From the NCBI GenBank assembly GCA_021805245.1, contig JAJZFS010000078.1, forward strand, positions 1-60,866: a stretch of 60,866 bases of DNA, in the 5' to 3' direction. Under the pieces are notes generated by a model, which had not been told where the DNA came from, did no database searches, and saw only the letters and a program-made list of their open reading frames with translations. Made by a program: the position numbers and the translations under genes. This DNA is from Pseudomonadota bacterium. Lineage in GTDB: Bacteria; Pseudomonadota; Alphaproteobacteria; Micavibrionales; UBA2020. Positions 8,467 through 28,900 of this stretch are shown in pieces. Positions within the stretch are counted from its first letter, which is position 1, and each line of letters begins with the position of its first letter.

Positions 8467-9438
8467 ATGGCGCAGATGACGCCTCTGCTTGTTTTTATTT
8501 TTCTTATCCTGCAGTTCGGCATCGGATATTCATTGCCGTATAAGGCGGGCTATAAGCCGATTTTTTACCGCTGGGTGGAAGATGCGGGGATTGACCTTGA
8601 CCGCCGTCTGAACCGTCCGGGGCGTCCGCAGTCCGTGCGCATAGTGCGCGGCGCGATGGTCGGCGTGGTGATGGGGCTTGCCGCTGTCGTGATCGGGCTG
8701 GCCGTGCATTACGTGGGACGCAGCGTATACGGCTTTTTCGCCCAGCTTTTGTTTCTGGCTTGCTGCGTCAATTTCATGACGCCGATAAAAGTCGCGCGCG
8801 AGGTGCTGAAGAACATAGAGGATTTGCCAAAGGCCAAGGCGTCGTTGCAGCCTTATCTGCACGAGCCGCTGGAACATGCGGACGGTCATACGGTCATCCG
8901 CAGAACGATTGAATTCATCGCGTTTTCATTCAACAGGTTTCTGCTGGGGCCGGTGTTCTGGTTTCTGGTGGCAGGGCCCATCGGCATGGCGCTGTATGTA
9001 ACATATTCGGCTTTGCAGCACGCGTTCGGCTTGCCCGACAAACGCCGGAAATATTTCGGCCAGTTCGTGCGCGGTGTGGATATATTGTTGAATATCGTTC
9101 CGGCGGCGTTGAGCGTTGTTTTTATAGCAGCAAGCGGGCTTTTCGTGAGGCGGGTCAATCCGTGGAACGAGGTCGTATCAATCGTGCAGCAGAGCCGTGC
9201 GGCAGGGCTTGTTTATCGGGAGTGGCTGATGGCGGCCATGGCAAACGGCCTTGGCATCGCGCTCGGCGGCGCTGTGCGATACAATGAAAATTATGTTGAA
9301 AAAAAACCCTGGCTCGGTCCGAAAGATGGCACGGCGCGCCTGATGCCGGATGATTTGTTGAGCGCGACGCACCTTCAATATGTCTTCTTATTATACATAT
9401 CCGTGATGATTTCCATCTTTATGATAATTGGACTATAA
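8467..9438 (+). CDS. CobD/CbiB/AmpE-like membrane protein (divergent)
   Basis: Multiple TMs; GPVFWFLVAGPIG, LNIVPA and AAMANGLGIALGG resemble CobD/CbiB motifs; starts 2 bp after the dksA stop. Confidence 0.6.
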   Translation: MAQMTPLLVFIFLILQFGIGYSLPYKAGYKPIFYRWVEDAGIDLDRRLNRPGRPQSVRIVRGAMVGVVMGLAAVVIGLAVHYVGRSVYGFFAQLLFLACCVNFMTPIKVAREVLKNIEDLPKAKASLQPYLHEPLEHADGHTVIRRTIEFIAFSFNRFLLGPVFWFLVAGPIGMALYVTYSALQHAFGLPDKRRKYFGQFVRGVDILLNIVPAALSVVFIAASGLFVRRVNPWNEVVSIVQQSRAAGLVYREWLMAAMANGLGIALGGAVRYNENYVEKKPWLGPKDGTARLMPDDLLSATHLQYVFLLYISVMISIFMIIGL

Positions 9439-9672
9439 TTACATAAAAAAATTAAGCTTGAAATTAAACTATAAAAATATCCATGACCTGGATAATAAGC
9501 ATATAAAAAAAATATTTATCTTATATTAATTATTCACCATTTACCTATTGCGTCAAAATGATAGGATGTTTGTCGAATAAAAACAGCTTCGATTCCCGAT
9601 ATGTTTTCCGGCCGTGAGGCCTTGTTTTCGAAACACTGTTTTTATTGACTACGCTTTAACCTTTAAAACGAG

Positions 9673-12600
9673 ATGACGCGTATGGCTGGAATGGAAGATA
9701 GAAGAAATATTGACAGTATTCTGCGTGAACCGCTGACGCGTCACAGGTTTCTCCTGAACAGCAAGATACGCGCAGCGCAGGCGCCTGAGGACCCGACGCC
9801 GTTTACGCTCGACGATTTAAAGGAATTTGCCAACAGCATTCCCACAAAAGATCCCGAATTCAAGGATGAAATCAAGAACGTCATAGATGCCATCCAGGCG
9901 GGCAAGGCGCAACAGCCGCCGCGTTTCAATACGCCGGAAACCCAGTTGCTCTGGGGCGCGGGGCTGGCCTACCTCAAATTGACCCCCGATACTCTGAAAA
10001 CATGGGATCCGGCTGTGGAAACCGGAGAGTTGAGCGGCACAGGTCTATGGAAACAAATTACCGGAACGCGGACGGCTTATCAGGAACTGCTGCTCCATGC
10101 GCAGCACGTCCGCGAAGCTTTGCGTGACAAGAACACCAAATACGCCTGGGGTGAGCCGGGCAGCGGATTTGCCTTCCGCCGCCAGAAGAACGTTATCGAT
10201 ATTGACTTGATGCAGACGATGATCGTCGGCTTCGAGCACGCCCGTGCCGACGTCTACCGTGAAATCGGCCGCGCCCTGCTGACGGTGAGCTATCCGCGCC
10301 GGATGCAGAAAGTTTACAACCTGATGCAGCCGCTGCTGCAAAAGTCGCGTAAGGCCGCGGCGAAAAAGGGTCCGGAACTCAAGCCTGACGAATACAAAAA
10401 GCTGCGTCTTTTAAGCGCCGAATGGCAGCTGCGCAGCATGATGTTCGATGCGGCGGAGGAGAACGTCGCCAACAGGTTTGTCTCCAACATCGGCCTGCAG
10501 GAGCTGCAAGACTACAGTGTGTCGATCAACAACACCGCCGTCACGCAACGCGCGACGGGTCTGACGCGCCTGCCGCCGGACAAGAACGCTTCGGAAGAAC
10601 TGCGCCGCTACATGAACCTGTGCAACGCGGTGCAGTTGAGCTTCTTCCAGAACAACGGCCTGTTCGAGGATACGGCTGCGGGCTGGAAGCGCGTCGGCGT
10701 CGATCCGGACATGGTGCGCAAGACGGCTACGCTGGCGCAACGGCCTGCCGGTGCGAAGGAAGATACGGACGGCGTGGATCATGCGGATTTCAAACATCTG
10801 CGCGAACTGTGCGGCGGTCCCGACGGCCTCGAAAACCTGCAGCCCAAGGCGCACGAGCGTCTGTACGGCTGGAGCAATATGTTGGGCCGTGTCAAGAGCA
10901 TGGATCAGCGCCGCAAGGAAGTCATCGACACCATATGGGATCTTTATGCCGAAGACCTGATCAAGAATATTCTGGAGCAGGTCAACGATCAGGTCGACCA
11001 GCAGCTGAAGGATGCAAAAGACAAGCAACAGCAGCAGGGTGAGGACGGCGAGGAAGGCGACGAGCAGGACGGCGAGGAGCAGGACGGCGAGGAGCAAGAC
11101 GGACAGGGGCAAGGCCAGGGTCAGGGCAAAGGTAAAGGCAAAGGCAAGGGCCAAAAAGGTAAAAAGAGCAAAGAACACGGCAAACAGCAAGGCGAGCCGC
11201 AGGATCCGGACGATCTGGATAATGACGGCGAAGGCGACGAGAACGAAGGCGACGAGAGCGAGGACGCCGACGGAGAAAAAAGCGACCAGAAGGGCGATAG
11301 CCCTGAAGGAAAGCTTGGCACCGAGAACGAAGATTCCGTTCCCGTTGAAGGCGCCGGCGATATGCCCAATGTTGAAAATCCGACTGAAAATCCGGAAGAC
11401 GAAGTCGATCCGGATGCCAACGGTCAGGATGCCGACGGCGAAGGCAAGGACGGCGAGGATCTCGATGATCTTGAAGACGCCAATGACGATGGTTCCGGCG
11501 ATGCCATGGACATGGACGAGCTGGAAGACCGCGCCAATGAGGGGCAGGACGGCGAAGACGGCGAAGACGGCGAAGACGGCGACGATGCCGATGGCGAAGA
11601 CGCCGACGGGCAAGGTCAGGGCAAAGGCAAGAAAAAGAAGAGCAATAAGCGCACCAAAAACGGCAAGCCGAGCAAAGGCGCCGGTAAGGGCGAGGGCAAA
11701 AGCCTGGCCGATCTTGCCAAGCAGGACTGGACGAATTATCCGGAGCGCATCAAGGAACTGGCCAGCCATATCAACCGCGTCCGCCTGATCTTCAAAAAGA
11801 TCCAGGAAATGCAGATGCAGACGCAGATCACCAAGTCGAGGTCGCTGGAGATTCTGCCTCAGGACGGCGAAGTGAAAGACCGCTTCAATGTCGAGGCGCA
11901 TAAAGATCTCACGATCAAAAAGGCCATGGGGTCTGTTGAAGAAGAGGATCTCAAGCGTTTCCACAAGGACGAGAACAAGCTCACGCCTGCCGAAGTCGAT
12001 ATCGTTATCATGATCGACGGCTCCGGCAGTATGGATATGGCATCCGGCGCGCTGAAGGGCGTCACCCCGCTGCAAAGCGCGCTGCAGGCCGCCGCTATCC
12101 TTTATGAAGCGGCTGCGGGCAAGGACATGCATATGAATGTCTATGTCGGCATGTGGGGTAACGACAAGCCGCCTATTTTGATTAAACCCGGAGATGACCG
12201 CGTCAAGGTCGGCCAGGCCATGGAAACCATGCGCAAAGGCCTCAATTCCGGGACGGAATTTGCACCCGCCGTTCCAAAGGTCGCGGAGACGATCAGTGAA
12301 CACAGGGGCAAAAGTGGAAACCTCTCCGGTTTCACGCATGTGTTGGTGATTTCTGACGGGGACGCTGTTGACGAACTGCCGTCCAAGGACAAAATCGCCA
12401 CCATGTTCAGGTACTCGGACAAGGTGACGTTCGACGTTGCGATCATCACCGCGCAGAAAGGTACTTCCATGGAGAAAATGGCCAAAGGACTCGGGGCAAA
12501 GAAGCCGCACCAGCAGGTCGGCGTTGTCCTGGGGAAAGACCCCAACGAGGTGCCGATGGCGATTGTGGGACTACTACTCGAGAAGGTTCGGAAATGTGGC

Positions 12601-12678
12601 AGTTTCAAAGCCATTCCGAGCAGCAAGAAACGGCGAGACATGAAAAAAGCCCTTAACAAGATGGATCCAAAGAAATGA
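9673..12678 (+). CDS. Large vWA-domain protein: degenerate zincin-like N-terminus, acidic/basic low-complexity linker, C-terminal vWA
   Basis: MIDAS residues IDGSGS (12016-12030), GTEF and ISDG; ~230-aa D/E/G/K-rich linker; REIGR...FDAAEENVAN in the N-terminal part. Confidence 0.85.
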   Translation: MTRMAGMEDRRNIDSILREPLTRHRFLLNSKIRAAQAPEDPTPFTLDDLKEFANSIPTKDPEFKDEIKNVIDAIQAGKAQQPPRFNTPETQLLWGAGLAYLKLTPDTLKTWDPAVETGELSGTGLWKQITGTRTAYQELLLHAQHVREALRDKNTKYAWGEPGSGFAFRRQKNVIDIDLMQTMIVGFEHARADVYREIGRALLTVSYPRRMQKVYNLMQPLLQKSRKAAAKKGPELKPDEYKKLRLLSAEWQLRSMMFDAAEENVANRFVSNIGLQELQDYSVSINNTAVTQRATGLTRLPPDKNASEELRRYMNLCNAVQLSFFQNNGLFEDTAAGWKRVGVDPDMVRKTATLAQRPAGAKEDTDGVDHADFKHLRELCGGPDGLENLQPKAHERLYGWSNMLGRVKSMDQRRKEVIDTIWDLYAEDLIKNILEQVNDQVDQQLKDAKDKQQQQGEDGEEGDEQDGEEQDGEEQDGQGQGQGQGKGKGKGKGQKGKKSKEHGKQQGEPQDPDDLDNDGEGDENEGDESEDADGEKSDQKGDSPEGKLGTENEDSVPVEGAGDMPNVENPTENPEDEVDPDANGQDADGEGKDGEDLDDLEDANDDGSGDAMDMDELEDRANEGQDGEDGEDGEDGDDADGEDADGQGQGKGKKKKSNKRTKNGKPSKGAGKGEGKSLADLAKQDWTNYPERIKELASHINRVRLIFKKIQEMQMQTQITKSRSLEILPQDGEVKDRFNVEAHKDLTIKKAMGSVEEEDLKRFHKDENKLTPAEVDIVIMIDGSGSMDMASGALKGVTPLQSALQAAAILYEAAAGKDMHMNVYVGMWGNDKPPILIKPGDDRVKVGQAMETMRKGLNSGTEFAPAVPKVAETISEHRGKSGNLSGFTHVLVISDGDAVDELPSKDKIATMFRYSDKVTFDVAIITAQKGTSMEKMAKGLGAKKPHQQVGVVLGKDPNEVPMAIVGLLLEKVRKCGSFKAIPSSKKRRDMKKALNKMDPKK
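11035..11700 (+). repeat. Coding low-complexity repeats in the vWA linker (DGEEQ 15-bp, DGE 9-bp, GQ/GK 6-bp units)
   Basis: GAGCAGGACGGCGAG repeats near 11062-11102, GACGGCGAA x3 near 11548-11574, two GQGQG(K)GK runs. Confidence 0.8.
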
Positions 12679-15557
12679 CGAAAAAAATGGAACAAGACAC
12701 ACAGCTCCTTAAAACAAAAATCAAGGACTTGATCGTTGATGAGGGTTTCCAACGGAAGGAAGCCCGCAGACTGCTGGGCGAGAAGGCCACGGAAGCCGCC
12801 GTCAGAAAAGAGACAGAGCGCCGCATGGAACGCGCGCAGGAATTGTCTGAAAAGCTGATCAGGCCGCTGGGCACGACGTCGCGTCCCTACCCGATGTGGG
12901 GCTCCCAGCGCGTTGATTACAACGGCCATTCGAACCTGGAGCAGGTTTTGTCCAGGATCGCGGACGATAGCAACCCGATGAAGGTCTACTCCGAGCGTCC
13001 TTATGCGCAAGTCATCGCCATGGCCTATTGCGACATGCCGGTGCCGAGCATGTTGCCGCTGTTCTTTGACGGCCTCGAGCGCCGCAAGCCCGAAAGCACC
13101 AACCGCACGCAGATGATGATCGGCGATCCGGGTGCGGGTAAATCCTTCATGGGCGCCCTGCAGGGCCGTATGCGTTCGACGAAGCCCGTCGAAGTGTTCG
13201 ACTGCGGCGGCAAGAACATGAACGAACTTCTGTTCGAAATGGTCCTCGATTTCGGCGCGGGCGATGCTCTGCCCAAGGCCGTCGACAAGCGTCTGCAAGC
13301 AGGGTCTCTGGAAGCGCTGTCTCTGGCGAAGCTGAAGCAATTGCCGACGGGAGCCGTCACGCTTGACGATGACAGCAACATCAAGTCCGTCGACTGGAAT
13401 TACTTCAAGGGTAACGCCAAGCCCCAGGACGTCGAAGCTGCGTTCGCCATCCTGAAGGATGTCGCCCAGATCGAAGGTCTCGACAATGCCAGCGGCAACA
13501 TGCTGGGCATGAACTCGCAATACGGCCCGCTGATCCGCTGGTTCATCGAAGGCCGCGAAGGCGTGCTGGACGAGTACAACAAGTCCAAGGAAGGGTCGGA
13601 CAACGGTCTGCAAACCGTTTGGCAGTTCCTCAACGGCGAAACCAACGAATGCACGGTTGAAAACCCGCTGAAGAACAAAGACCTGACCAACGGTCCGTCG
13701 TCCTTCACGTTCCGCCGTGACGACATGCAGGCGGGCTTCTTCGTCACCCTGACGGGTAACAAGACGGAAGACGGCCTGACGACGCGCAGCCTGAACAAAT
13801 CGGTTTACTCGCGTCTGTCGCCGCAAACGCTGCCTGACCCGACGGAAGCCGACTGGCAGCACCGTATCTGCCAGATGATGTGCGGCGTGCCTGTGTCGAC
13901 GCTGTACAACGTCTTCAGAGAACAGGCTGACGAAAATCCGAAGGAATTCGGCCAGTGGCTGATGCAACTGAGAAAGACCAAAGCCGAACTCGAAGGCGTG
14001 CCTGTTCCTGAACTGCAGGAAACGCTGCTCGAAAACTGGAGGAACGTCGTTAACTCTTCCCGCAAACTGGCACGTTTCTACAGCGAATGGTCCGAAATGA
14101 CCAACGCCGAAAACCTCATGACGACGGGCAATACCGATCTGATCGAGGAAGTGGACGAAGAATACTCCAAGAAGGAAGGCATCGACTTCCGCAAGATCAA
14201 GCAGCACCTCGAGGCGGCTCTGCCGATCCGTCCCCGCATGCTGCCTGAGGATGCGGAAACCAAGGCCGATTTCAAAAACTTCATGGAACAGCCCAAGCTG
14301 GGCGAGAAGGAGTACGAAAACCCGTCCGTGGCTTTCGGCACGCGCCTTGTCGATGTTCTGGACCGCATGGTGTTCGAGAAGTCCGAAGCGATCGGCAAGC
14401 ACAAGCTCTATGAGAAGCTGCAAGCCTCTATGGGCAATGCCGGCCTGCGCGATATCGTGTTGCAGGACGGGGCGCACAGCTTCCAGCGTTCGGTGGAAGA
14501 AGACCTGAACGTCAGCGTCTTCGACAGCACCGACGTGGGCAAGAGAGCCGCCGCGGCGCGCAAAGTGTTCTGCGATTATATCCGTCAGGTTGATCCGCAG
14601 ATCGTTGAAGCCGATGACGACAAGATCATCACGATCGCGCGTCTGAAGAGAGCCTTGCAAACCGTCGGTGACAATAACACTGCGGAATCCAAGGAACTGT
14701 TCATCGTCAACCGTGACCATGAATCTCTGGGGGCTTTCCCGCTTGCGCGCGCCAGGATCGAAGATATGGCCGCTTATCCGGAAGGCACGGAAGAGGTCGA
14801 GCTGTCCGTCAGCGACATTGTCAGCCATGAAGACTTCATGGCGGCACTGGCCCTGCCGACGGTGAGCGCGAAAAACCTCGACGCGGTCTGGGATACGAAT
14901 ATCCGCACTTTGTCCGAGCGGATTGAAAAAGAACACAATCCGCAAGAGGCAGCGCCGGAGAAGAAGTCGAGCGCGGACGAAATCTTCAAGATCACGGAAA
15001 ACCGTTCCGAACAAGGTCTTGCAACGACGACGTTGCGGGTGATGTTCAAAGACGCCGCGGGCAAGGAGAGTGATGTCTCCGTGCACATCGTCTTGAACAA
15101 AAACCGCAACAAGGCTCTGATCGTCGGCGAGAAGGTTCCGACCAAACTGCTGTCGGCCTTCAAGGAAGCCGGTATCATCCACGTCGACCGCCATGCGCCG
15201 AACGCGAAGGCCAAAGTCGATGCGGCTCTGACCGACCTGACGCGCGGGACGCGCAATCCCGAGCTGACGAAGCGCCATCTTGCAGATGCCTTCAGGTTCC
15301 GGAACGACTTTGATCTGGGCGATTTCCTTGTCGAGAAGAAGGCCATCACCCCGGCGGAACTCAAGGCCGCGCGCGAAGAGCTGAAAAACGTCAACGACTC
15401 GGAAGCGAAGCTGGACGAAGTCCTGATCAAACAGGGCGTCATCACAGCCGCGCAACTGGCCGAGAAGACGAAACTGTCCGAGATGCTTGTCGATGACAAA
15501 ATGGGCATGCTGTACGAAAAGTATGTCGTTAAAGACAGGAAGAAGCCGGCAATCTAA
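12675..15557 (+). CDS. Large MoxR/dynein-related (AAA_5-like) AAA+ ATPase with C-terminal MshEN-like repeats
   Basis: GDPGAGKS Walker A, VLDEYNK Walker B, VTLTGN sensor 1, LNKSVYSRL Arg finger; ATGA overlap with the vWA gene. Confidence 0.82.
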   Translation: MTKKMEQDTQLLKTKIKDLIVDEGFQRKEARRLLGEKATEAAVRKETERRMERAQELSEKLIRPLGTTSRPYPMWGSQRVDYNGHSNLEQVLSRIADDSNPMKVYSERPYAQVIAMAYCDMPVPSMLPLFFDGLERRKPESTNRTQMMIGDPGAGKSFMGALQGRMRSTKPVEVFDCGGKNMNELLFEMVLDFGAGDALPKAVDKRLQAGSLEALSLAKLKQLPTGAVTLDDDSNIKSVDWNYFKGNAKPQDVEAAFAILKDVAQIEGLDNASGNMLGMNSQYGPLIRWFIEGREGVLDEYNKSKEGSDNGLQTVWQFLNGETNECTVENPLKNKDLTNGPSSFTFRRDDMQAGFFVTLTGNKTEDGLTTRSLNKSVYSRLSPQTLPDPTEADWQHRICQMMCGVPVSTLYNVFREQADENPKEFGQWLMQLRKTKAELEGVPVPELQETLLENWRNVVNSSRKLARFYSEWSEMTNAENLMTTGNTDLIEEVDEEYSKKEGIDFRKIKQHLEAALPIRPRMLPEDAETKADFKNFMEQPKLGEKEYENPSVAFGTRLVDVLDRMVFEKSEAIGKHKLYEKLQASMGNAGLRDIVLQDGAHSFQRSVEEDLNVSVFDSTDVGKRAAAARKVFCDYIRQVDPQIVEADDDKIITIARLKRALQTVGDNNTAESKELFIVNRDHESLGAFPLARARIEDMAAYPEGTEEVELSVSDIVSHEDFMAALALPTVSAKNLDAVWDTNIRTLSERIEKEHNPQEAAPEKKSSADEIFKITENRSEQGLATTTLRVMFKDAAGKESDVSVHIVLNKNRNKALIVGEKVPTKLLSAFKEAGIIHVDRHAPNAKAKVDAALTDLTRGTRNPELTKRHLADAFRFRNDFDLGDFLVEKKAITPAELKAAREELKNVNDSEAKLDEVLIKQGVITAAQLAEKTKLSEMLVDDKMGMLYEKYVVKDRKKPAI

Positions 15558-15573
15558 GGCTTAGGAGGAGTAC

Positions 15574-15918
15574 ATGACGGGTGAGGGACGTAAAACGCCC
15601 CCCCCCGCCGCTCTTCTGGAGAAAACCGCGTCTGTTGCCGCGCAGCAGAACGCCATGGAGCGGGGATGCAAGTTCCTGCCACACGGCAGCCGGTTGTTTC
15701 CAGTCGAGCAGGGGTGGGAAAGCACGACGATCAGCCGTGACGAGAACGTTTCCGTTGTCAGCACTTTGCTGGAACTTGAAGAGACCATGCAAAGCGCCGA
15801 TGCGAAGGTTATCTTCATCCCGATAGATGCGTTGATGACGGATGCGGATATCGAAAAGATATGCCAGAGAAACGCGACCGTCAGAACGTTCTTCAAAGAA
15901 GTCAAAAAAGGCGAATAA
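15574..15918 (+). CDS. Hypothetical protein, third gene of the vWA-AAA operon
   Basis: Strong AGGAGGAG RBS, start 16 bp after the ATPase stop, followed by a stem-loop; no recognisable motif. Confidence 0.7.
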   Translation: MTGEGRKTPPPAALLEKTASVAAQQNAMERGCKFLPHGSRLFPVEQGWESTTISRDENVSVVSTLLELEETMQSADAKVIFIPIDALMTDADIEKICQRNATVRTFFKEVKKGE

Positions 15919-15934
15919 CCTTTACATCTTTTGT

Positions 15935-15969
15935 CACAGGGCAGGCCGCGATGCGCGGCTTGCCCTGTG
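15935..15969. terminator. Long stem-loop between convergent genes
   Basis: CACAGGGCAGGCCGCG-atg-CGCGGCTTGCCCTGTG, 16-bp stem with one G-U pair. Confidence 0.65.
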
Positions 15970-15986
15970 CGCATATTTAAGATGCG

Positions 15987-16817
15987 TCAAAAGCCTTGTA
16001 CGGCCCTGAAAGGCGAAAGCGCGATGTGCGGCGGAACGAGGCAGTCCGCGGCATCATAGGGAAGCGGCTGTCCGTCCAGTGTTTCGACCCGTCCGCCCAT
16101 CGCTTCAATAATGGCCTGGCCCGGCGCCACATCCCAGAAAGCGATGCGGCCTTGCGGTTTGGCCGTACAGAAGACAAACAGGTCCGCCTGTCCTTCCGCG
16201 ATTTGGCAGGGGCGGAAAATGCCTGTCTCCGTGTCCTCCCGTATGGGCTGATCTTTGAAATGCTCCGCAAGATAGTTTCTGATCTGCGGCAAATGGGCGT
16301 ATTTCTTCTGCAGTAAAATGCGCGGCACAGGGGCTGCGGGAGCGGTGCCGGCCGCAAGCGGGGTTCTTTTCCCGTCCGCGCCTGTTCTCGTGGCCGTGCC
16401 GCGGCCTGCGGCGCTGTAAAGCAGGTCGAGCGACGGATGGTACACAACGCCCAAAGCGGGTTTGTTGCCGATGACAAGGCCTACCGCCACAACGAAGCCA
16501 TCGGTTCTATCGATGTATTCCTGCGTGCCGTCGATGGGGTCGACCGTCCAGAAAGTGCCTGCGGAGAAATCGGGAATTTTTCCGTCGGCGACACGTTCCT
16601 CCGAGATGATAGGCACTTGCGGCGTAATTTTCTGTAATGCCGGAAGTATAATGTTTTCCGATGCAATATCTGCATCCGTCACGTTGCTGCCGTCCGCTTT
16701 CGCGTAGACTTTGGCGCGGTCATACAATGCCATGACCGTGTGACCGGCCTGTCTTACGATCTGTTCGACGGCGGGGAGGAGATCTTGCGGGGCAGGATCG
16801 GACACTACTTTGTTCAT
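15987..16817 (-). CDS. cysQ: 3'(2'),5'-bisphosphate nucleotidase CysQ (inositol monophosphatase family)
   Basis: KADGSNVTDAD, ISEE, WTVDPIDGT, WDVAPG. Confidence 0.88.
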   Translation of the reverse strand: MNKVVSDPAPQDLLPAVEQIVRQAGHTVMALYDRAKVYAKADGSNVTDADIASENIILPALQKITPQVPIISEERVADGKIPDFSAGTFWTVDPIDGTQEYIDRTDGFVVAVGLVIGNKPALGVVYHPSLDLLYSAAGRGTATRTGADGKRTPLAAGTAPAAPVPRILLQKKYAHLPQIRNYLAEHFKDQPIREDTETGIFRPCQIAEGQADLFVFCTAKPQGRIAFWDVAPGQAIIEAMGGRVETLDGQPLPYDAADCLVPPHIALSPFRAVQGF

Positions 16818-17033: not shown

Positions 17034-17252
17034 ATGAAATCTGCACTGAAACCAGCCCTAGAGAATCTGGATAAGGCCTTGGGGCACCTTGAGATAGCTG
17101 TTGAAAAACGCTTTCAGTCCATTAAAAAACAGAAGGTGGAACCGCAACTTGATTTGAGCGCGCGCAACGAACGCGAAGTGAATCGCAAGATCGCCGCGAA
17201 GCTCGACCAAACGATCAACCGTCTTGAAATGCTTTTAACCGAGGAGGCATAA
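17034..17252 (+). CDS. Small coiled-coil protein upstream of zapA (DUF4164/ZauP-like)
   Basis: 72-aa helical protein ending KLDQTINRLEMLL, in the conserved position before zapA. Confidence 0.7.
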   Translation: MKSALKPALENLDKALGHLEIAVEKRFQSIKKQKVEPQLDLSARNEREVNRKIAAKLDQTINRLEMLLTEEA

Positions 17253-17256
17253 ATCC

Positions 17257-17643
17257 GTGGCTGAGGTAACAATCTATATCAACGGACGTTCCTACGACAT
17301 CTCCTGCGATAACGGACAGGAAGGCCGCATTGTCGATCTGGCGACCTATATTGACGAGAGACTGCAACAGATTTCGCGCGCGGGCGCCGCATACAATGAT
17401 GCGCACTTGATGGTCCTGACAACTCTGGTGCTGGCCGACGAGCTTTTTGACGCCCGCGAAGGGCATGTGCCTGCATCGGCGTTGCGCGCCACGCGCGGGA
17501 ATGCCGCCGCTGCGCCGGTGGCCGCGCCTGCGGTGCCGCAGCCAGCCATTGACCGCGAGGAAGAACAGGCCGTCCTGAAAGTTCTGGAGCAGATAACCAA
17601 GCGAATTGAAGGGGTTGCCACCCGCGTGATGCAGGCCTCCTAA
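17257..17643 (+). CDS. zapA: Cell division protein ZapA
   Basis: VTIYINGRSYDISCDNGQE and LVLADEL motifs; followed by 6S RNA and ygfA. Confidence 0.92.
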   Translation: MAEVTIYINGRSYDISCDNGQEGRIVDLATYIDERLQQISRAGAAYNDAHLMVLTTLVLADELFDAREGHVPASALRATRGNAAAAPVAAPAVPQPAIDREEEQAVLKVLEQITKRIEGVATRVMQAS

Positions 17644-17650
17644 GAGTTTG

Positions 17651-17679
17651 TTGCTTCTCCGCGCTTGTGCGCCTATAGT
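17651..17679 (+). promoter_or_regulatory. Sigma70 promoter of 6S RNA
   Basis: TTGCTT-N17-TATAGT, ending 6 bp before the predicted RNA 5' end. Confidence 0.7.
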
Positions 17680-17685
17680 CATTTC

Positions 17686-17849
17686 CGGAAGGCTGCTGCA
17701 GAGTTCGATAAGACAGCACTGTCCCAGAGGCCGATGATCGTTAGATCGGGAGCCGTCCCTGTTCAGACCGTGGTCTGATTATATGGCGCCCCCCTGTTTT
17801 ACAGGGCCTAGCGGATAACCCCGTCGACGGCTCAGGTGGCAGTCTTCCG
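17686..17849 (+). ncRNA. ssrS: 6S RNA
   Basis: ~165 nt between zapA and ygfA; the ends pair (CGGAAGGCTGCT / GGCAGTCTTCCG); own promoter; conserved synteny. Confidence 0.88.
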
Positions 17850-17878
17850 CTTCTTTTTGTTTGAAGAGAAAGTCGCAC

Positions 17879-18454
17879 GTGACACTGCACCTCCCTACAA
17901 AACCGGCTTTGCGTCAGTCGTATCTCGAGAGGCGCCTGCAGATATTGCCGAACAACAGAATCGCCGCGTCGGAAGCCATCTGCGACAGGTTTTTTAAGGA
18001 TGTGCAGTTGGAGGCGGGCGCTCTCGTGGCCGGGTACTGGCCCGTCAAAGGCGAGGTGGATGCGCTGCTGATTTTGCGCGCGCTTCTGGCCAAGGGGCAT
18101 AACTGCGCTTTGCCGCATGTGGTGGGCGACGGCGCGCCGCTGCTGTTTCGCCATTGGGACGAGAACGTACCGATGATAACGGGCAAATACGGCCTTCAGG
18201 AACCCGTGGCGGGCGATGAGGCGGTCATGCCGGATGTTTTGCTGGTGCCCGTGCTGGCGTTCGATGCGCAAGGTTACCGTCTCGGTTATGGCGGCGGCTT
18301 TTATGACCGCACGATCGTCCGTTTGAAGAAGCAGAAGCCTGTGCGGACGATCGGACTGGCCTATGAGATGCAGCACTACAAAGAAGGCTTGCCGCATGAC
18401 GCAAACGACATCAAGGTGGATGTCATCATAACAGACGGAAACATATACACATGA
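17879..18454 (+). CDS. ygfA: 5-formyltetrahydrofolate cyclo-ligase
   Basis: LVPVLAFD..GYRLGYGGGFYDR; start uncertain (GTG 17879 chosen). Confidence 0.93.
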   Translation: MTLHLPTKPALRQSYLERRLQILPNNRIAASEAICDRFFKDVQLEAGALVAGYWPVKGEVDALLILRALLAKGHNCALPHVVGDGAPLLFRHWDENVPMITGKYGLQEPVAGDEAVMPDVLLVPVLAFDAQGYRLGYGGGFYDRTIVRLKKQKPVRTIGLAYEMQHYKEGLPHDANDIKVDVIITDGNIYT

Positions 18455-24386: not shown

Positions 24387-24887
24387 TTAAACCGACTGGT
24401 AACGCGTATAGTTCACCGTCGAAAAATCCCCGCCCCAGAGCTTTTCGAGGTCGTAAAAGGCGCGTACTTCGGCGCGGAAGATATGCACCATTACATCGCC
24501 GGTGTCGATGATCGCCCAGTCGCCGGATTCCAGCCCTTCGACGCGCGCCTTGATCTGGCGGTCGTGGTTGAGCTTCTCGCGCAGGTTTCGCGCCAGGGAG
24601 GCGACGTGCCGCGAAGAGGTGCCGGTGGCGATCACCATGTAATCGGCGATTGACGTCTTGCCCTTCAGCGGTATGCAGACGATATTTTGCCCCTTGTCGG
24701 CATCGAGAGCGGCGGAGATGAAATCCTGCAAGCTTGCAGGTTTCTTGGCAGCGGCTGGCTTGGCGGATTTTTCAGCGGCCTTTTTAACAGGCTTTTTGAC
24801 GGCTTTTTTAACGGTCTTGGAGGCTACGGCCTTTTTGGCGGGAGCCTTCTGATTTTTTTTTGCAGTCGTCGCCTTCTTCGTTTTCAT
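24387..24887 (-). CDS. rsfS: Ribosome silencing factor RsfS (Iojap) with a Lys/Ala-rich N-terminal extension
   Basis: ADYMVIATGTS.RHV and W.IIDTGDVMVHIF..EVR.FYDLEKLW. Confidence 0.94.
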   Translation of the reverse strand: MKTKKATTAKKNQKAPAKKAVASKTVKKAVKKPVKKAAEKSAKPAAAKKPASLQDFISAALDADKGQNIVCIPLKGKTSIADYMVIATGTSSRHVASLARNLREKLNHDRQIKARVEGLESGDWAIIDTGDVMVHIFRAEVRAFYDLEKLWGGDFSTVNYTRYQSV

Positions 24888-24910
24888 AGCCGGAGTATAG
24901 CGTACACGGT

Positions 24911-25498
24911 TTAAGTCCGCAACTTCCTTGTTTCCCGAATAGCCGTCGCCGACTGGCTGTTCAGGGGGATGTGCAGTATCGTCCAGGCGGGCAGGCGGCA
25001 GGTTTTGAGGCGCAGGGCTTCGTCTTGCGGCAAAAGACGGCCGCGGAACCGTTCCAGCGCCCGGCAGGACTTGATGTTATTGCCGCGCGGCGGGCGGTCG
25101 AGGACGGCGACGGGGACGCTTTGGTAGATTTTTTCCCATTCCTGCCAGCGGTGGACCTGCAGCAGGTTGTCGGTGCCCATCAGCCAGACGAAGCGCGTGC
25201 GCGGGAAGCGTGTTTTCAGCGCGGTGATCGTGTCGGCGGTGTAGCGGGTGCCGAGATGCTGCTCGATGTCGGTGACGAAAATGCGCGGATGCCCGCCGGC
25301 GATCTTTTGCGCGCTCGCCAGACGCTCCGCCAGCGGCGCCATGCCGTTGGTCGATTTCAGCGGGTTTTGCGGGCTGACCATCCACCAGACGGCGTCCAGT
25401 CCCAGCAGCTTCATCGCGTAAAGGCTGATATGCAGATGTCCTTCATGTGCGGGGTTGAACGACCCGCCGAGGAGGCCAATGGTGCGTTGGGGGATCAT
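24911..25498 (-). CDS. nadD: Nicotinate-nucleotide adenylyltransferase NadD
   Basis: GLLGGSFNPAHEGH, WLMGTD, SATAIR; start placed at ATG 25498. Confidence 0.95.
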   Translation of the reverse strand: MIPQRTIGLLGGSFNPAHEGHLHISLYAMKLLGLDAVWWMVSPQNPLKSTNGMAPLAERLASAQKIAGGHPRIFVTDIEQHLGTRYTADTITALKTRFPRTRFVWLMGTDNLLQVHRWQEWEKIYQSVPVAVLDRPPRGNNIKSCRALERFRGRLLPQDEALRLKTCRLPAWTILHIPLNSQSATAIRETRKLRT

Positions 25499-25517
25499 GT
25501 TTGCCCGCCGCGTAGCG

Positions 25518-25934
25518 TCATTCAACTTTACGGACACGGTTTGAATAGTCTATCGTCCCGTCGGGAAATGTGAGATGCCACACTTCATAGCCCGTAAAAT
25601 TGAACACCTGGAGCTTCAGGTTGTCGGTGAACTCGAACGTCAGATCGGAACTCTCTTTTTCAAGTCTGGCGGCGACAACGACTTTTCCTTCCAGTTCGTT
25701 TTTCGCTTCCGTGAACACATTGAGCGGCATGGGGATCCCGTATTTCTGCTCATAGTCAAAATTGCAGAGTTTGTTTGTGCCGTTTTTTATGATGCGCCAA
25801 TAATCGCTTCGCAAAACCGTCCCCTGCGAAAATGTGACAACCAGAGAAACAAAGTCCCCTTCAACATACTTCCCCGCAACAGTGACAGAACTGTCTTTCA
25901 GCTTCTCGAGCGCCGAACTAAGCTTCATTTCCAT
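25518..25934 (-). CDS. Hypothetical protein (possibly DUF6188-like), AT-richer than its neighbours
   Basis: 138-aa ORF between putA and nadD; pattern WRI...LEGK.V...SDL.F.F...L.V...YE.W.L..PDG recalled from DUF6188. Confidence 0.6.
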   Translation of the reverse strand: MEMKLSSALEKLKDSSVTVAGKYVEGDFVSLVVTFSQGTVLRSDYWRIIKNGTNKLCNFDYEQKYGIPMPLNVFTEAKNELEGKVVVAARLEKESSDLTFEFTDNLKLQVFNFTGYEVWHLTFPDGTIDYSNRVRKVE

Positions 25935-25969
25935 ACTCTATTTTCGTTAAATAACATACGTATAATTTG

Positions 25970-28900
25970 TTACACCTCTGCCAAGGATACCAGCGTTGTG
26001 TTCCCACCGGAAGCGGTAGTATTGATGCTGACGCTTTTTTCTGTGGCAAAGCGGAAGAGGTAGTGCGGCCCGCCGGCTTTCGGGCCGGTGCCGGAGAGGC
26101 CTTGCCCGCCGAACGGCTGCACGCCGACGACTGCACCGATGATCGTGCGGTTGACGTAGCAGTTGCCGGCGTTCACGCGCGCGCAAGCCGAGCGCATCTG
26201 GTGGTCGATGCGCGTGTGGATGCCGAAGGTGAGGCCGTAGCCCGTGGCATTGATCTGGTCGATCACGCTATCGATCTCGCCCGCCTTGTAGCGGATAATG
26301 TGCAAAATCGGGCCGAACACCTCGCGCTTCAGCACGTCGAGCGACGCGATTTCATAAGCGCGGGGGGCGAAGAACGTGCCGTTTTTGCAGCCTTCCGGCA
26401 TTGTGACCTTTGCCAGCGGCGTCGCTTCCCTGTCCATGCGGGCGGCATGTTCCTCAAGGATAGACAGCGCGTCCTTGTCGATGACGGGGCCGATGTCGGT
26501 CGAGAGCTTCGCCGGATCGCCGAGAACGAGTTCCCGACAGGCGCCGTCAAGCATCGTGATGACCTTGCCGGCGATGTCTTCAGGCACGAACAATACGCGC
26601 AGGGCGGAGCAACGCTGTCCCGCCGAGCGGAAAGCGGATGTAATCACGTCGTCGACGATCTGTTCCGGCAGGGCGCTGGAATCGACGATCATCGCATTCT
26701 GTCCGCCGGTTTCGGCGATCAGTGTCGCGATGGCGCCTTTGCGGCTGGCGAGCGTGCGGTTGATCAGTTGCGCGACTTCGGTCGAGCCGGTGAAGCAGAC
26801 GCCGGTGATGCGTTCGTCCGCGACCATCACTTCGCCCGCGAGTTCGCCCTTGGCGGGCACGAAGGAGAGAACATTCCTGGGGATACCGGCCTTGTACAGC
26901 AGCTCGACGGCCTTTTGCGCGATGGCGCAGGTTTGTTCCGCGGGCTTGGCGATGACGGCGTTGCCTGCCATCAATGCCGCGGAAACCTGCCCCATGAAAA
27001 TTGCCAGCGGGAAGTTCCACGGGCTGATGCAAAGGAACACGCCGCGTCCGTGGAACGAGAGCAGGTTGGCCTCGCCCGTCGGTCCCGGCAGCGTGAGAGC
27101 TGCGCCGAAGTGTGCGCGGCCTTCGACGGCGTAATAGCGGCAGAAATCCACCGCCTCGCGGACTTCGGCAATCGCGTCGGGCAGGGACTTGCCCGCTTCG
27201 CGCACGCAAAGCGAGGCGAACTCGGCCGTATTTTCTTCCATCAGATCCGCCATGCGCTCAAGACAGGCGGCGCGGTCGTCCGCGGGGGCGCTGTCCCATG
27301 CGGGGAAGGCATCATGCGCCGTTGCGAGTGCCAGTTTCATGTCCTCTTTCGTCGCCATCGTCACCGTGCCGACTTCGCGGCGGTTGTCGACAGGGCTGAG
27401 GATTTTCTGCGAGCTGCCGATTTTGGTCATGCCGTTGATCAGCGGCGCGACGGCATAGCGCTGGCTGGCAAACGTCTCGACGTCCTGCAGGAACTTCGCG
27501 CTGACGTTCGTGTTGGCGAATTCGAGACCTTTGGAATTCTTGCGCGCCGTGCCGTAGATGTCGGCGGGCAGGGGGATTTTCGGGTGCGGCTTGCTCTCCA
27601 GCTTCTCCATGTAGAGCACCGGATCGGCGATGATGTCTTCCACCGGCACCTTGTCATTTTGCAGGCGGTTGACGAAGCTGGAGTTCGCGCCGTTTTCGAG
27701 CAGGCGGCGGACGAGATAGGGCAGCAAGTCCTGATGGCTGCCGACGGGGGCATAGACGCGGCAGGGATACTTGCCGTCTTCAAGCCCGACGATCTGGTGA
27801 TAGAGCGGCTCGCCCATGCCGTGCAGGCGCTGGAATTCGAAGTCTTTTTTGTTTTTGCCCGCAAGTTCGATCAGGGCCGCGACGGTGTAGGCGTTGTGCG
27901 TGGCGAACATCGGGTAGAGAATGTCGCGCCGTTCCATCATCTTCGCCGCGCAGGCGAGATAGGCGACGTCGGTCGCGTTCTTGCGCGTGAAAACGGGATA
28001 TCCGGGCAGGCCGTTGACTTGCGCATACTTGATCTCGCTGTCCCAGTAAGCGCCTTTGACGAGACGCAGCATCATGCGGCGGTTGCTGTTCTCGATGAGG
28101 CCGATGAGCCAATCCAGCGCGCGGCCGGCGCGCTTTTGGTAGGCCTGCAGCGCGAGGCCGAAGCCTTCCCAGTCTTTGAGTTTGGGATCGGGGAGAACGT
28201 TGCCGATGATGTCGAGGGTGATTTCAAGCCGGTGCGCTTCTTCCGCATCGACGGTCATGCCGATGCCGTAACCGGCGCACTTCCGGGCCAGTTCCAGAAT
28301 TTTCGCGGAGAGCGCGGGCACGCAAACGTCGCGATGCGCATATTCGAAGCGCGGGTGCAGGGCGGAGAGCTTGACCGAGATGCCGGGGGACATGACCACG
28401 CCGCGTCCGTTGGCGGCCTTGCCGATGGCGTCGATGGCCATGGCGTAGTTTTTGAAATAGCGCTCCGCATCTTCCATCGTGCGCGCGCCTTCGCCGAGCA
28501 TGTCGAACGAGTGGCGGTAGCCCATCTTCTCGGCGTCAGCGCCGCGGGAAAGTCCTTCCTCGATCGTGCGGCCCATGACGAACTGCTGGCCCATGATCTT
28601 CATGACATGCAGCATGGCCCTGCGGATAACGGGTTCCCCCATGCGGGGGATCAGGCCTCTGGCTTCGTCTTCGACGTCGCTGATGACCTTGCCGGTCAGC
28701 ATCAGGGCCCATGTCGAGGCGTTGACGAAGAGGTCGTGGCCTTTGCCGAGGTGCTGGTTCCAGTCGGCACCGCTCATCTTGTCGCGGATCAGCAGGTCGG
28801 CGGTCTCTTTGTCGGGAATGCGGAGCAGGGCTTCGGCAAGGCACATCAGCGCCACGCCTTCCTTGGTGGTGAGGCCGAATTCCTGCAAAAAGCTGTCGAG

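Follow-up and report, generated by a model that had tools for sequence, protein, structure and literature searches.

Pairs composed of a MoxR-type ATPase and a partner carrying a domain of the von Willebrand factor A type (vWA) are widespread, their known clients are few (cNOR, Rubisco, cobaltochelatase, and fumarate reductase/LdcI), and their mechanism has been visualized only recently. NorD comprises an N-terminal domain, a disordered linker, a vWA domain, and a functional C-terminus (PMC9976466; PMC13036017), and the helix-2 insert of NorQ, located in the region between Walker A and Walker B, grips a finger of the vWA domain (PMC13036017). A three-gene operon found in a 60,866-nucleotide (nt) stretch of DNA (contig JAJZFS010000078.1 of assembly GCA_021805245.1; below, the window means this whole stretch) from a bacterium of the alphaproteobacterial order Micavibrionales encodes a pair that resembles these systems in several respects: a 1001-residue vWA protein (gene 1, P0001), a 960-residue AAA+ ATPase (ATPases associated with diverse activities of the cell; gene 2, P0002), and a 114-residue protein (gene 3, P0003). 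The operon probably encodes an enlarged form, specific to its lineage, of the MoxR AAA+/vWA remodeling machines of which NorQ-NorD, CbbQ-CbbO, and CobS-CobT are examples.

The likeness to NorQ/NorD, the pair for iron insertion into cNOR, extends to gene adjacency and to domain layout. The ATPase and vWA genes are adjacent in both, and P0001 strings together an N-domain, a long, disordered acidic linker, a vWA domain with its adhesion site dependent on metal ions (MIDAS), and a C-terminal tail, as NorD does. By contrast, P0002 is 960 aa long as compared to ~270 aa in the solved NorQ chains. Its additions are an extension at the N-terminus, ~100 aa inserted between the Walker A and Walker B motifs, a larger lid, and ~370 residues at the C-terminus; it shares 13-14% sequence identity with NorQ in structural alignment, with no profile-level sequence match. 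The operon also differs in that the vWA gene comes first, its product has a putative zincin-like N-domain, a third, small gene follows, and no nor genes are adjacent. The differences from CbbQ/CbbO, the Rubisco activase, are the lack of a Pfam match to CbbQ_C in P0002 at E<=1, the absence of a Rubisco gene among the annotated neighbors, and the larger size and extra domains of the ATPase.

CobS/CobT, the motor of the aerobic cobaltochelatase, likewise pairs an AAA+ with a vWA subunit, the latter acidic in its middle region, but the Pfam CobT N-domain (PF06213) is found in none of 19 aligned gene 1 homologs and CobT_C in one, at E 0.28. The genome that harbors the operon encodes a canonical CobT elsewhere (PF06213, E 4e-74; 616-aa open reading frame, ORF), beside an AAA_5 CobS-like gene (325-aa ORF), on another contig (C76 of genome G000, about 24664-27148; loci L091 and L033). 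This pair is present with the catalytic chelatase subunit, CobN, undetected (0 matches in the 97%-complete genome). The canonical pair elsewhere, the lack of CobT domains, and the failure to find CobN together rule out a CobS/CobT identity for the operon. Gene 1 also recalls the eukaryotic Midasin/Rea1, in which a D/E-rich linker precedes the MIDAS domain; here, however, the MIDAS lies on a different protein from the ATPase, each chain of which has a single AAA module instead of six.

The initial annotation of this DNA had named CobS/CobT, RavA/ViaA, and NorQ/NorD as the characterized pairs that could account for the operon, and no full-length or high-identity match to any of them was found. 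NorQD, CbbQO, and RavA-ViaA identities are ruled out by the absence of their client genes (nor, Rubisco, ldcI/frd) nearby and of family-specific domains at E<=1. Literature searches on NorQ/NorD/VWA and on Micavibrio with MoxR/vWA/AAA found no paper describing the operon; in the accessible part of the genome paper on M. aeruginosavorus, the one such mention is of another protein, haemolysin-like and von Willebrand factor-containing. The source labels of operon homologs are 'hypothetical protein' or a generic guess throughout, as in one P0001 homolog labeled 'Mg-chelatase subunit ChlD'. Sequence searches of Pfam, NCBIfam, and PDB do not recognize the family, so it has remained 'hypothetical' throughout.

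A predicted MoxR-type fold in a giant ATPase

Gene 2 (12675..15557, + strand) was initially read as half of a much larger, divergent MoxR-type pair, and the predicted structure bears this out. NorQ and CbbQ are the top folds in two structure comparisons of the AlphaFold2 model of P0002 (predicted local distance difference test score 78.6, predicted template modeling score 0.70); in a search of 48,161 representative chains, NorQ scored 15.0 and CbbQ2 14.9, followed by dynein (13.7), Mdn1 (12.6), and McrB (12.0). The ~250 structurally aligned residues scatter over model residues 112-592, so the AAA+ module (aa 112-592; 13008..14450, +) would hold ~220 extra residues. From Walker A (K156) to Walker B (D299) the distance is 143 residues, in keeping with the ~140 aa initially noted, and one ~100-aa block is inserted between them; the lid is enlarged as well. 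Outside the module lie ~110 N-terminal and ~370 C-terminal residues. P0002 is two to three times as large as a usual MoxR ATPase. The whole-model structure searches covered P0002 residues up to ~610.

The catalytic motifs recognized at the outset (Walker A, Walker B, sensor 1, and an Arg finger) are conserved among 101 full-length family representatives: G155-K156 in all 101, D299 in 98, E300 in 100, and N362 and R380 in 101 each. These alignments point to a conserved sensor-1 Asn and Arg finger, with the R380-type Arg as the putative finger. Walker B of the family reads DE(Y/F)N(K/R), which we take to be the MoxR-like form. Gene 2 can thus be placed in the MoxR class by its modeled fold, its motifs, and its vWA partner, while the existing sequence models do not recognize it.

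Near its C-terminus, P0002 carries a MshEN-like insert of the cyclic di-GMP (c-di-GMP)-binding type (aa 881-930; 15315..15464, +), restricted to the window's protein and its closest relatives (four of 26 aligned ATPase members). The NCBIfam model NF053729, a MshE-related c-di-GMP-binding motif, matches the insert at E 1.5e-8 with 34.3 bits, below its cut-off of 38 bits; it also matches the other three insert-bearing members (E 3e-8 to 7e-8, 32-33 bits) and none of four members that lack the insert. Two of the four insert-bearing proteins weakly match the C-terminal part of PRK15489, presumably NfrB carrying a MshEN domain. The 2.25-Mb genome has ten GGDEF matches, a fairly rich c-di-GMP repertoire for its size, and c-di-GMP signaling is therefore present in it. 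A c-di-GMP input to the ATPase, through the sub-threshold insert and in the window's genus only, is plausible. P0002 is a candidate for a new kind of c-di-GMP effector.

The vWA adaptor and the small third protein

The product of gene 1 (9673..12678, +; a database copy starts at Met4 and is 998 aa long, an alternative start) has 55 homologs of about 1000 aa. Four parts are common to the 19 vWA proteins that were aligned: a conserved N-domain (aa 1-441; 9673..10995, +), a linker (aa 445-690; 11005..11742, +), a conserved pre-vWA segment (aa 691-774) together with the vWA/MIDAS domain (aa 775-960), and a conserved basic C-terminal tail, the last two parts spanning 11743..12675 (+). The linker is of low complexity, rich in D, G, E, K, and Q (47, 47, 35, 28, and 21 residues, respectively, of 246 aa). 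In-frame tandem repeats with periods of 6, 9, and 15 nt encode its D/G/E/K runs (window positions 11030..11606), and the variable length of the linker among orthologs fits such short repeats.

The Pfam family VWA_2 matches P0001 aa 777-896 with E 1.2e-5 and a borderline 26.3 bits against a cut-off of 27; it matches all 19 aligned proteins, with a best E of 9e-9. All 19 proteins keep the five MIDAS residues (D782, S784, S786, T861, and D895) unchanged, and gene 1, judged by its sequence, carries a vWA domain with an intact DxSxS...T...D motif, as was first noted. An hhalign comparison of aa 690-825 with CobT of the same genome gave a weak co-linear match (probability 17.8%).

We read the N-domain as a zincin-like shape that probably descends from a metallopeptidase and whose catalytic motif is degenerate in the window. 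The top structural neighbors of its model are M48/M13-type and mini-gluzincin peptidases (Ste24p, PepO, ECE-1, 3cmn, DUF885, an M48-like protein, Zmp1, and BepA); Jannalysin aligns with model residues 135-294 over 102 of its 104 residues. Foldseek searches with this model and with that of P0002 returned no match at E<=0.001. The zincin-like assignment based on fold neighbors is independently supported by the alignment: HExxH is present at positions 196-200, within a predicted helix (187-203) that follows a three-stranded sheet, in ten of 74 relatives, namely the paralogous and the most distant clades, including all five paralog loci read. The next long helix contains an invariant Glu, E250. 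At the same positions, most orthologs linked to dksA have R-E-I-G-H and those of the window's genus R-E-I-G-R, indicating that the first zinc ligand has been lost across the DksA-linked clade; HExxH in the active-site helix, the hallmark of canonical gluzincins, is absent from the window's N-domain. The paralogous vWA proteins (L026-L030), which keep HExxH, have an extra N-domain insert of ~50-90 aa after alignment column 400, and those of L029 and L030 an additional one of ~90 aa.

A peptidase-like N-domain followed by a vWA-type domain with DxSxS is also found in DUF2201_N/DUF2201 proteins, which differ in being ~410-440 aa long and lacking a long linker. PF13203 has no match in the genome of the window and matches two of 61 genomes of the class; at E<=1, neither PF13203 nor PF09967 is among the families of these 19 proteins, and when hhalign compared the vWA-protein profile with three DUF2201 proteins, the alignment was confined to 14 columns at the MIDAS motif (probability 2.8%). 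Identity of the gene 1 N-domain with DUF2201_N or with the CobT N-domain is thus not detectable by Pfam or hhalign.

Gene 3 (15574..15918, +) encodes a conserved protein of 114 aa with 136 homologs, all 99-116 aa long, all unannotated, and none with a Pfam domain; no Pfam family was found in P0003 itself. A23, A27, W48, and E109 are invariant in the alignment, and the small gene is directly 3' of the ATPase gene in every locus where it was read. A complex prediction for P0003 with ATPase residues 600-960 and the vWA N-domain (score 0.00, mark 0.32) carries no weight either way.

Operon layout, distribution, and inheritance

The three co-directional genes are present as initially described, with ORFs of 1001, 960, and 114 aa. 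Genes 1 and 2 overlap by ATGA (12675-12678), and the strong ribosome-binding site of gene 3 is AGGAGG at 15563-15568, 5 nt ahead of its ATG. The AT-rich region noticed upstream is a 234-nt leader (9439..9672, +) with 29.5% GC, as compared to 56.6% for the whole window, and is a probable promoter region. It borders a sigma-70-like site at 9410-9439 that has 10 of 12 matches to the consensus; this site is not significant, since four such sites were found in total and 2.8 +/- 1.6 are expected from shuffles. Promoter and terminator consensus scans were both at the shuffle level, no Rfam family matched at E<=1 in 9300-16100, leader included, and folding of the leader as a whole gave no significant signal (z-score -1.48). 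Just 5' of gene 1, the leader has a long inverted repeat (9575..9650), AAAAACAG...CUGUUUUU, with no Rfam match.

Downstream, a hairpin at 15932..15973 (no strand assigned) separates the operon from a convergent inositol-monophosphatase (IMPase) gene. Its 16-bp perfect core, the stem-loop seen from the letters, encloses a 3-nt loop and folds with -39 kcal/mol (z -6.66); none of 200 shuffles was as stable. It has no clear U-tract, is placed between convergent genes, and is likely a terminator.

Long antisense ORFs accompany the operon, one opposite gene 2 (12141..15455, -; 1104 aa) and one opposite gene 1 (10411..12510, -; 699 aa). Comparison with a 96%-identical locus (L050) identifies the coding strand. 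The 183 substitutions fall on codon positions 1/2/3 of the + frame 29/9/145 times; for the antisense ORF the counts at codon positions 1/2/3 are 139/9/28, a mirror image of the third-position bias on the + strand. Because substitutions concentrate at + frame third positions, the + strand is coding and the antisense ORFs are not.

At 50% identity, the ATPase family forms 241 clusters in a set of 1.84 billion representatives, with nearly all full-length members 780-1100 aa long, and each operon protein has from ~55 to 164 detected homologs. Of 41 related genomes, 26 have the ATPase. It occurs in 20 of 24 genomes of the window's own family, five of five from two other families of the order, and none of 11 searched from five further families; across the class, seven of 201 sampled genomes have it, the own genome and one flagged unpublished included. 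Forty-one public loci were collected as species representatives, all from metagenome-assembled genomes (MAGs); their titles read Alphaproteobacteria, Micavibrio sp. (6), Rhodospirillaceae/Rhodospirillales (4), Bdellovibrionales (2), and a few others. The carriers of the operon are uncultured Alphaproteobacteria. One locus (L068, with the ATPase and small genes at 56-60% identity) is titled a Patescibacteria-group MAG, probably a binning or labeling error given that all other loci are alphaproteobacterial.

Conservation of the three-gene order, for which the initial annotation had called on a homolog search, is evident in these loci. The vWA gene lies upstream of the ATPase gene in 37 of 41, the other four starting at or near the ATPase gene, and the order is complete, with the small gene after the ATPase gene, in 35. 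Of the six loci that miss the small gene, three stop at a contig end, and in three distant ones tblastn at 1e-5 was negative; in one distant locus, read separately, a 116-aa small-protein homolog is among the ORFs. At least 11 further genomes from the window's family encode a second ATPase copy, ~28% identical, and the five paralog loci read all have the same three-gene order in another housekeeping context. The genome of the window has a single copy and no paralog.

The neighbors in the window are housekeeping genes (RuvB, TolB, ValRS, DksA, CobD-like, IMPase, and YmdB), and the arrangement DksA-(CobD)-operon-(IMPase)-orf155-orf218-YmdB holds down to 38% ATPase identity (L023). DksA is upstream of the operon in 24 of 41 loci, a CobD/CbiB-family gene is directly upstream in many, and IMPase, orf155, orf218, and YmdB are downstream in most loci that reach far enough. 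The two ORFs of this set, at 17215..17682 (-; 155 aa) and 17741..18397 (-; 218 aa), have no Pfam family and are syntenic in most related loci. In a more distant family of the order (L024, 3204..5384, -), a 500-aa ORF with no Pfam family comes after the small gene, and the gene for an ECF-type (extracytoplasmic function) sigma factor comes next. The GC content at third codon positions is 0.67-0.75 for the three operon genes as compared to 0.77-0.83 for ValRS, RuvB, and TolB in the window, a composition that is slightly lower yet broadly host-like. The three genes are co-inherited as a core chromosomal locus. Conserved synteny, host-like composition, and housekeeping neighbors point to a long-resident locus and to vertical inheritance, in line with the long-resident, lineage-specific system first suggested. 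To that first picture, the analysis adds the zincin-like N-domain, the acidic linker reminiscent of NorD, CobT, and midasin, the MshEN-like insert, and a second, paralogous system in many relatives.

Proposed mechanism and rival explanations

If the operon is an enlarged MoxR/vWA machine, its action may be pictured after NorQD (PMC13036017). The ATPase would form a hexamer, on which the vWA domain would dock by placing an element in the pore; contact with the vWA finger would fall to the enlarged insert that separates Walker A from Walker B, in place of the helix-2 insert. ATP hydrolysis would then turn or pull the vWA domain relative to the N-domain, stretching the acidic linker, while the MIDAS and the degenerate zincin-like N-domain would hold the client at two points and thereby promote its remodeling. 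More speculatively, the 114-aa protein could be a dedicated third subunit or regulator, and the MshEN-like insert could render the machine c-di-GMP-responsive in the window's genus. Beyond the fold class, the motifs, and the gene linkage, all of this is what we infer.

Several results weigh against the enlarged MoxR/vWA machine. At the level of sequence, P0002 has no match to any Pfam, NCBIfam, or PDB AAA sequence model; Pfam finds no family in it at E<=1, thus neither an AAA family nor CbbQ_C. AAA_5 matches one of 26 ATPase family members, at E 0.17, and 18 places in the same genome, gene 2 not among them. Pfam over all 26 ATPase and 17 small-protein members produced scattered chance-level rows only, and PDB sequence searches with P0002, P0001, and the ATPase family profile gave no significant match. 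Alignment of the ATPase profile to CobS and to a MoxR-like protein of the same genome by hhalign recovered the P-loop at most (probability <=1%). Since no sequence method ties gene 2 to an AAA family, its assignment to the MoxR class depends on the predicted structure and the motifs. Parts of the system, namely the N-terminal ~110 and C-terminal ~370 residues of P0002 and the whole of P0003, have no assigned fold: in the ESM Atlas, P0002 residues 600-960 found no usable match, and P0003 reached scores of <=0.81, a level that shuffled proteins reach one third of the time. The MshEN-like insert, besides scoring below the cut-off, lacks some of the canonical motif residues, as we take that motif to read. 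The hexamer and the docking of the vWA domain on the ring are drawn by analogy with NorQD, and the ATPase activity is predicted. Finally, the gene neighborhoods of either copy offer no client candidate.

The peptidase-like N-domain invites another explanation, an ATP-driven protease in which this domain would cleave substrates captured or unfolded by the AAA+ ring, a split analogue of FtsH-type proteases. The M48/M13-type and mini-gluzincin neighbors, the canonical HExxH in helix 187-203 of ten of 74 relatives (all five paralog loci read among them), and the invariant E250 in the next long helix would all be expected of such an enzyme. Yet the first zinc ligand is lost across the DksA-linked clade, where the window has R-E-I-G-R and most orthologs R-E-I-G-H, and the genome has no second copy. 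In addition, MoxR-class rings are, to our knowledge, not known to thread substrates. The twisting model for NorQD is in line with non-threading (PMC13036017). A protease is thus unlikely. A chaperone for cofactor or metal insertion, in the strict sense of NorQD and CobST and dedicated to one metalloenzyme of the lineage, is no more probable than the protease. NorQ and CbbQ are the closest solved folds, the pre-vWA and vWA segments show the weak co-linear profile match to CobT, and a CobD/CbiB-family gene often lies directly upstream; however, this gene was undetected in several syntenic loci (e.g., L054, L061-L063, and L076), no candidate metalloenzyme gene is beside either copy, the 97%-complete genome yielded no CobN, and a canonical CobS/CobT pair is already encoded elsewhere.

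Three components built around a MoxR-like ATPase and a vWA protein, with a mostly inactive peptidase-like domain fused to the latter, also recall the MoxR-vWA ternary conflict or anti-phage systems (Kaur et al. 2020), in which the small protein would be the third component. These systems are described as having inactive peptidase domains on the vWA component, a third component that is VMAP, iSTAND, FtsH, or a beta-propeller, variable effectors C-terminal to the vWA domain, and a patchy phyletic spread (PMC7159879). The operon departs from them at nearly every turn: the domain order is reversed, with the vWA domain C-terminal; no VMAP, iSTAND, FtsH, or beta-propeller partner is present, gene 3 encoding 114 aa with no such domain; effectors do not diversify among relatives; and the locus is syntenic and vertically inherited among housekeeping genes, not a variable island. 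A PADLOC search with the three proteins gave no match at E<=1, and PHROGs returned weak unrelated rows (E 0.023 and 6e-4). A conflict system is accordingly very improbable. There is next to no probability that the genes are non-functional ORFs, side by side by chance or in decay: long antisense ORFs such as the 1104-aa one (-) show that reading frames of this length can occur here, but the placement of 145 of 183 substitutions at third positions, the ~55-164 homologs per protein and 241 ATPase clusters, the invariant catalytic motifs, and the conserved gene order refute it. The enlarged MoxR/vWA machine remains the explanation we favor.

A joint reading would go further, and we consider it rather unlikely in its entirety. 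The operon would represent an unrecognized two-chain AAA+ class that occurs only in Alphaproteobacteria resembling Micavibrio, with small genomes and possibly a predatory life; in this class, a giant MoxR ring drives a vWA-tethered gluzincin via an acidic tether. The HExxH paralog would be an ATP-gated protease, the window's copy a pseudo-protease descendant that serves as a client clamp, and the MshEN module on the ATPase tail a genus-level c-di-GMP switch. If true, a second messenger would be tied to a lineage-specific remodeling step, e.g., a cell-cycle or attack/attachment switch.

As compared to the known MoxR/vWA pairs, the operon is new in its size, its inserts, the peptidase-like domain of its adaptor, the third gene dedicated to it, and an input that a second messenger may provide. 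The region that would contact the vWA finger, equivalent to the helix-2 insert, is greatly enlarged in the giant ATPase; the family joins to a MIDAS adaptor a peptidase-like domain that looks active in one paralog but is degenerate in the other; and the locus is a core, vertically inherited one in a poorly studied alphaproteobacterial lineage. Its size, enlarged insert, peptidase-like domain, and core inheritance make the family a natural test of the generality of the finger-in-pore and linker-stretching mechanism, and it may show how pseudo-proteases arise in MoxR/vWA machines.

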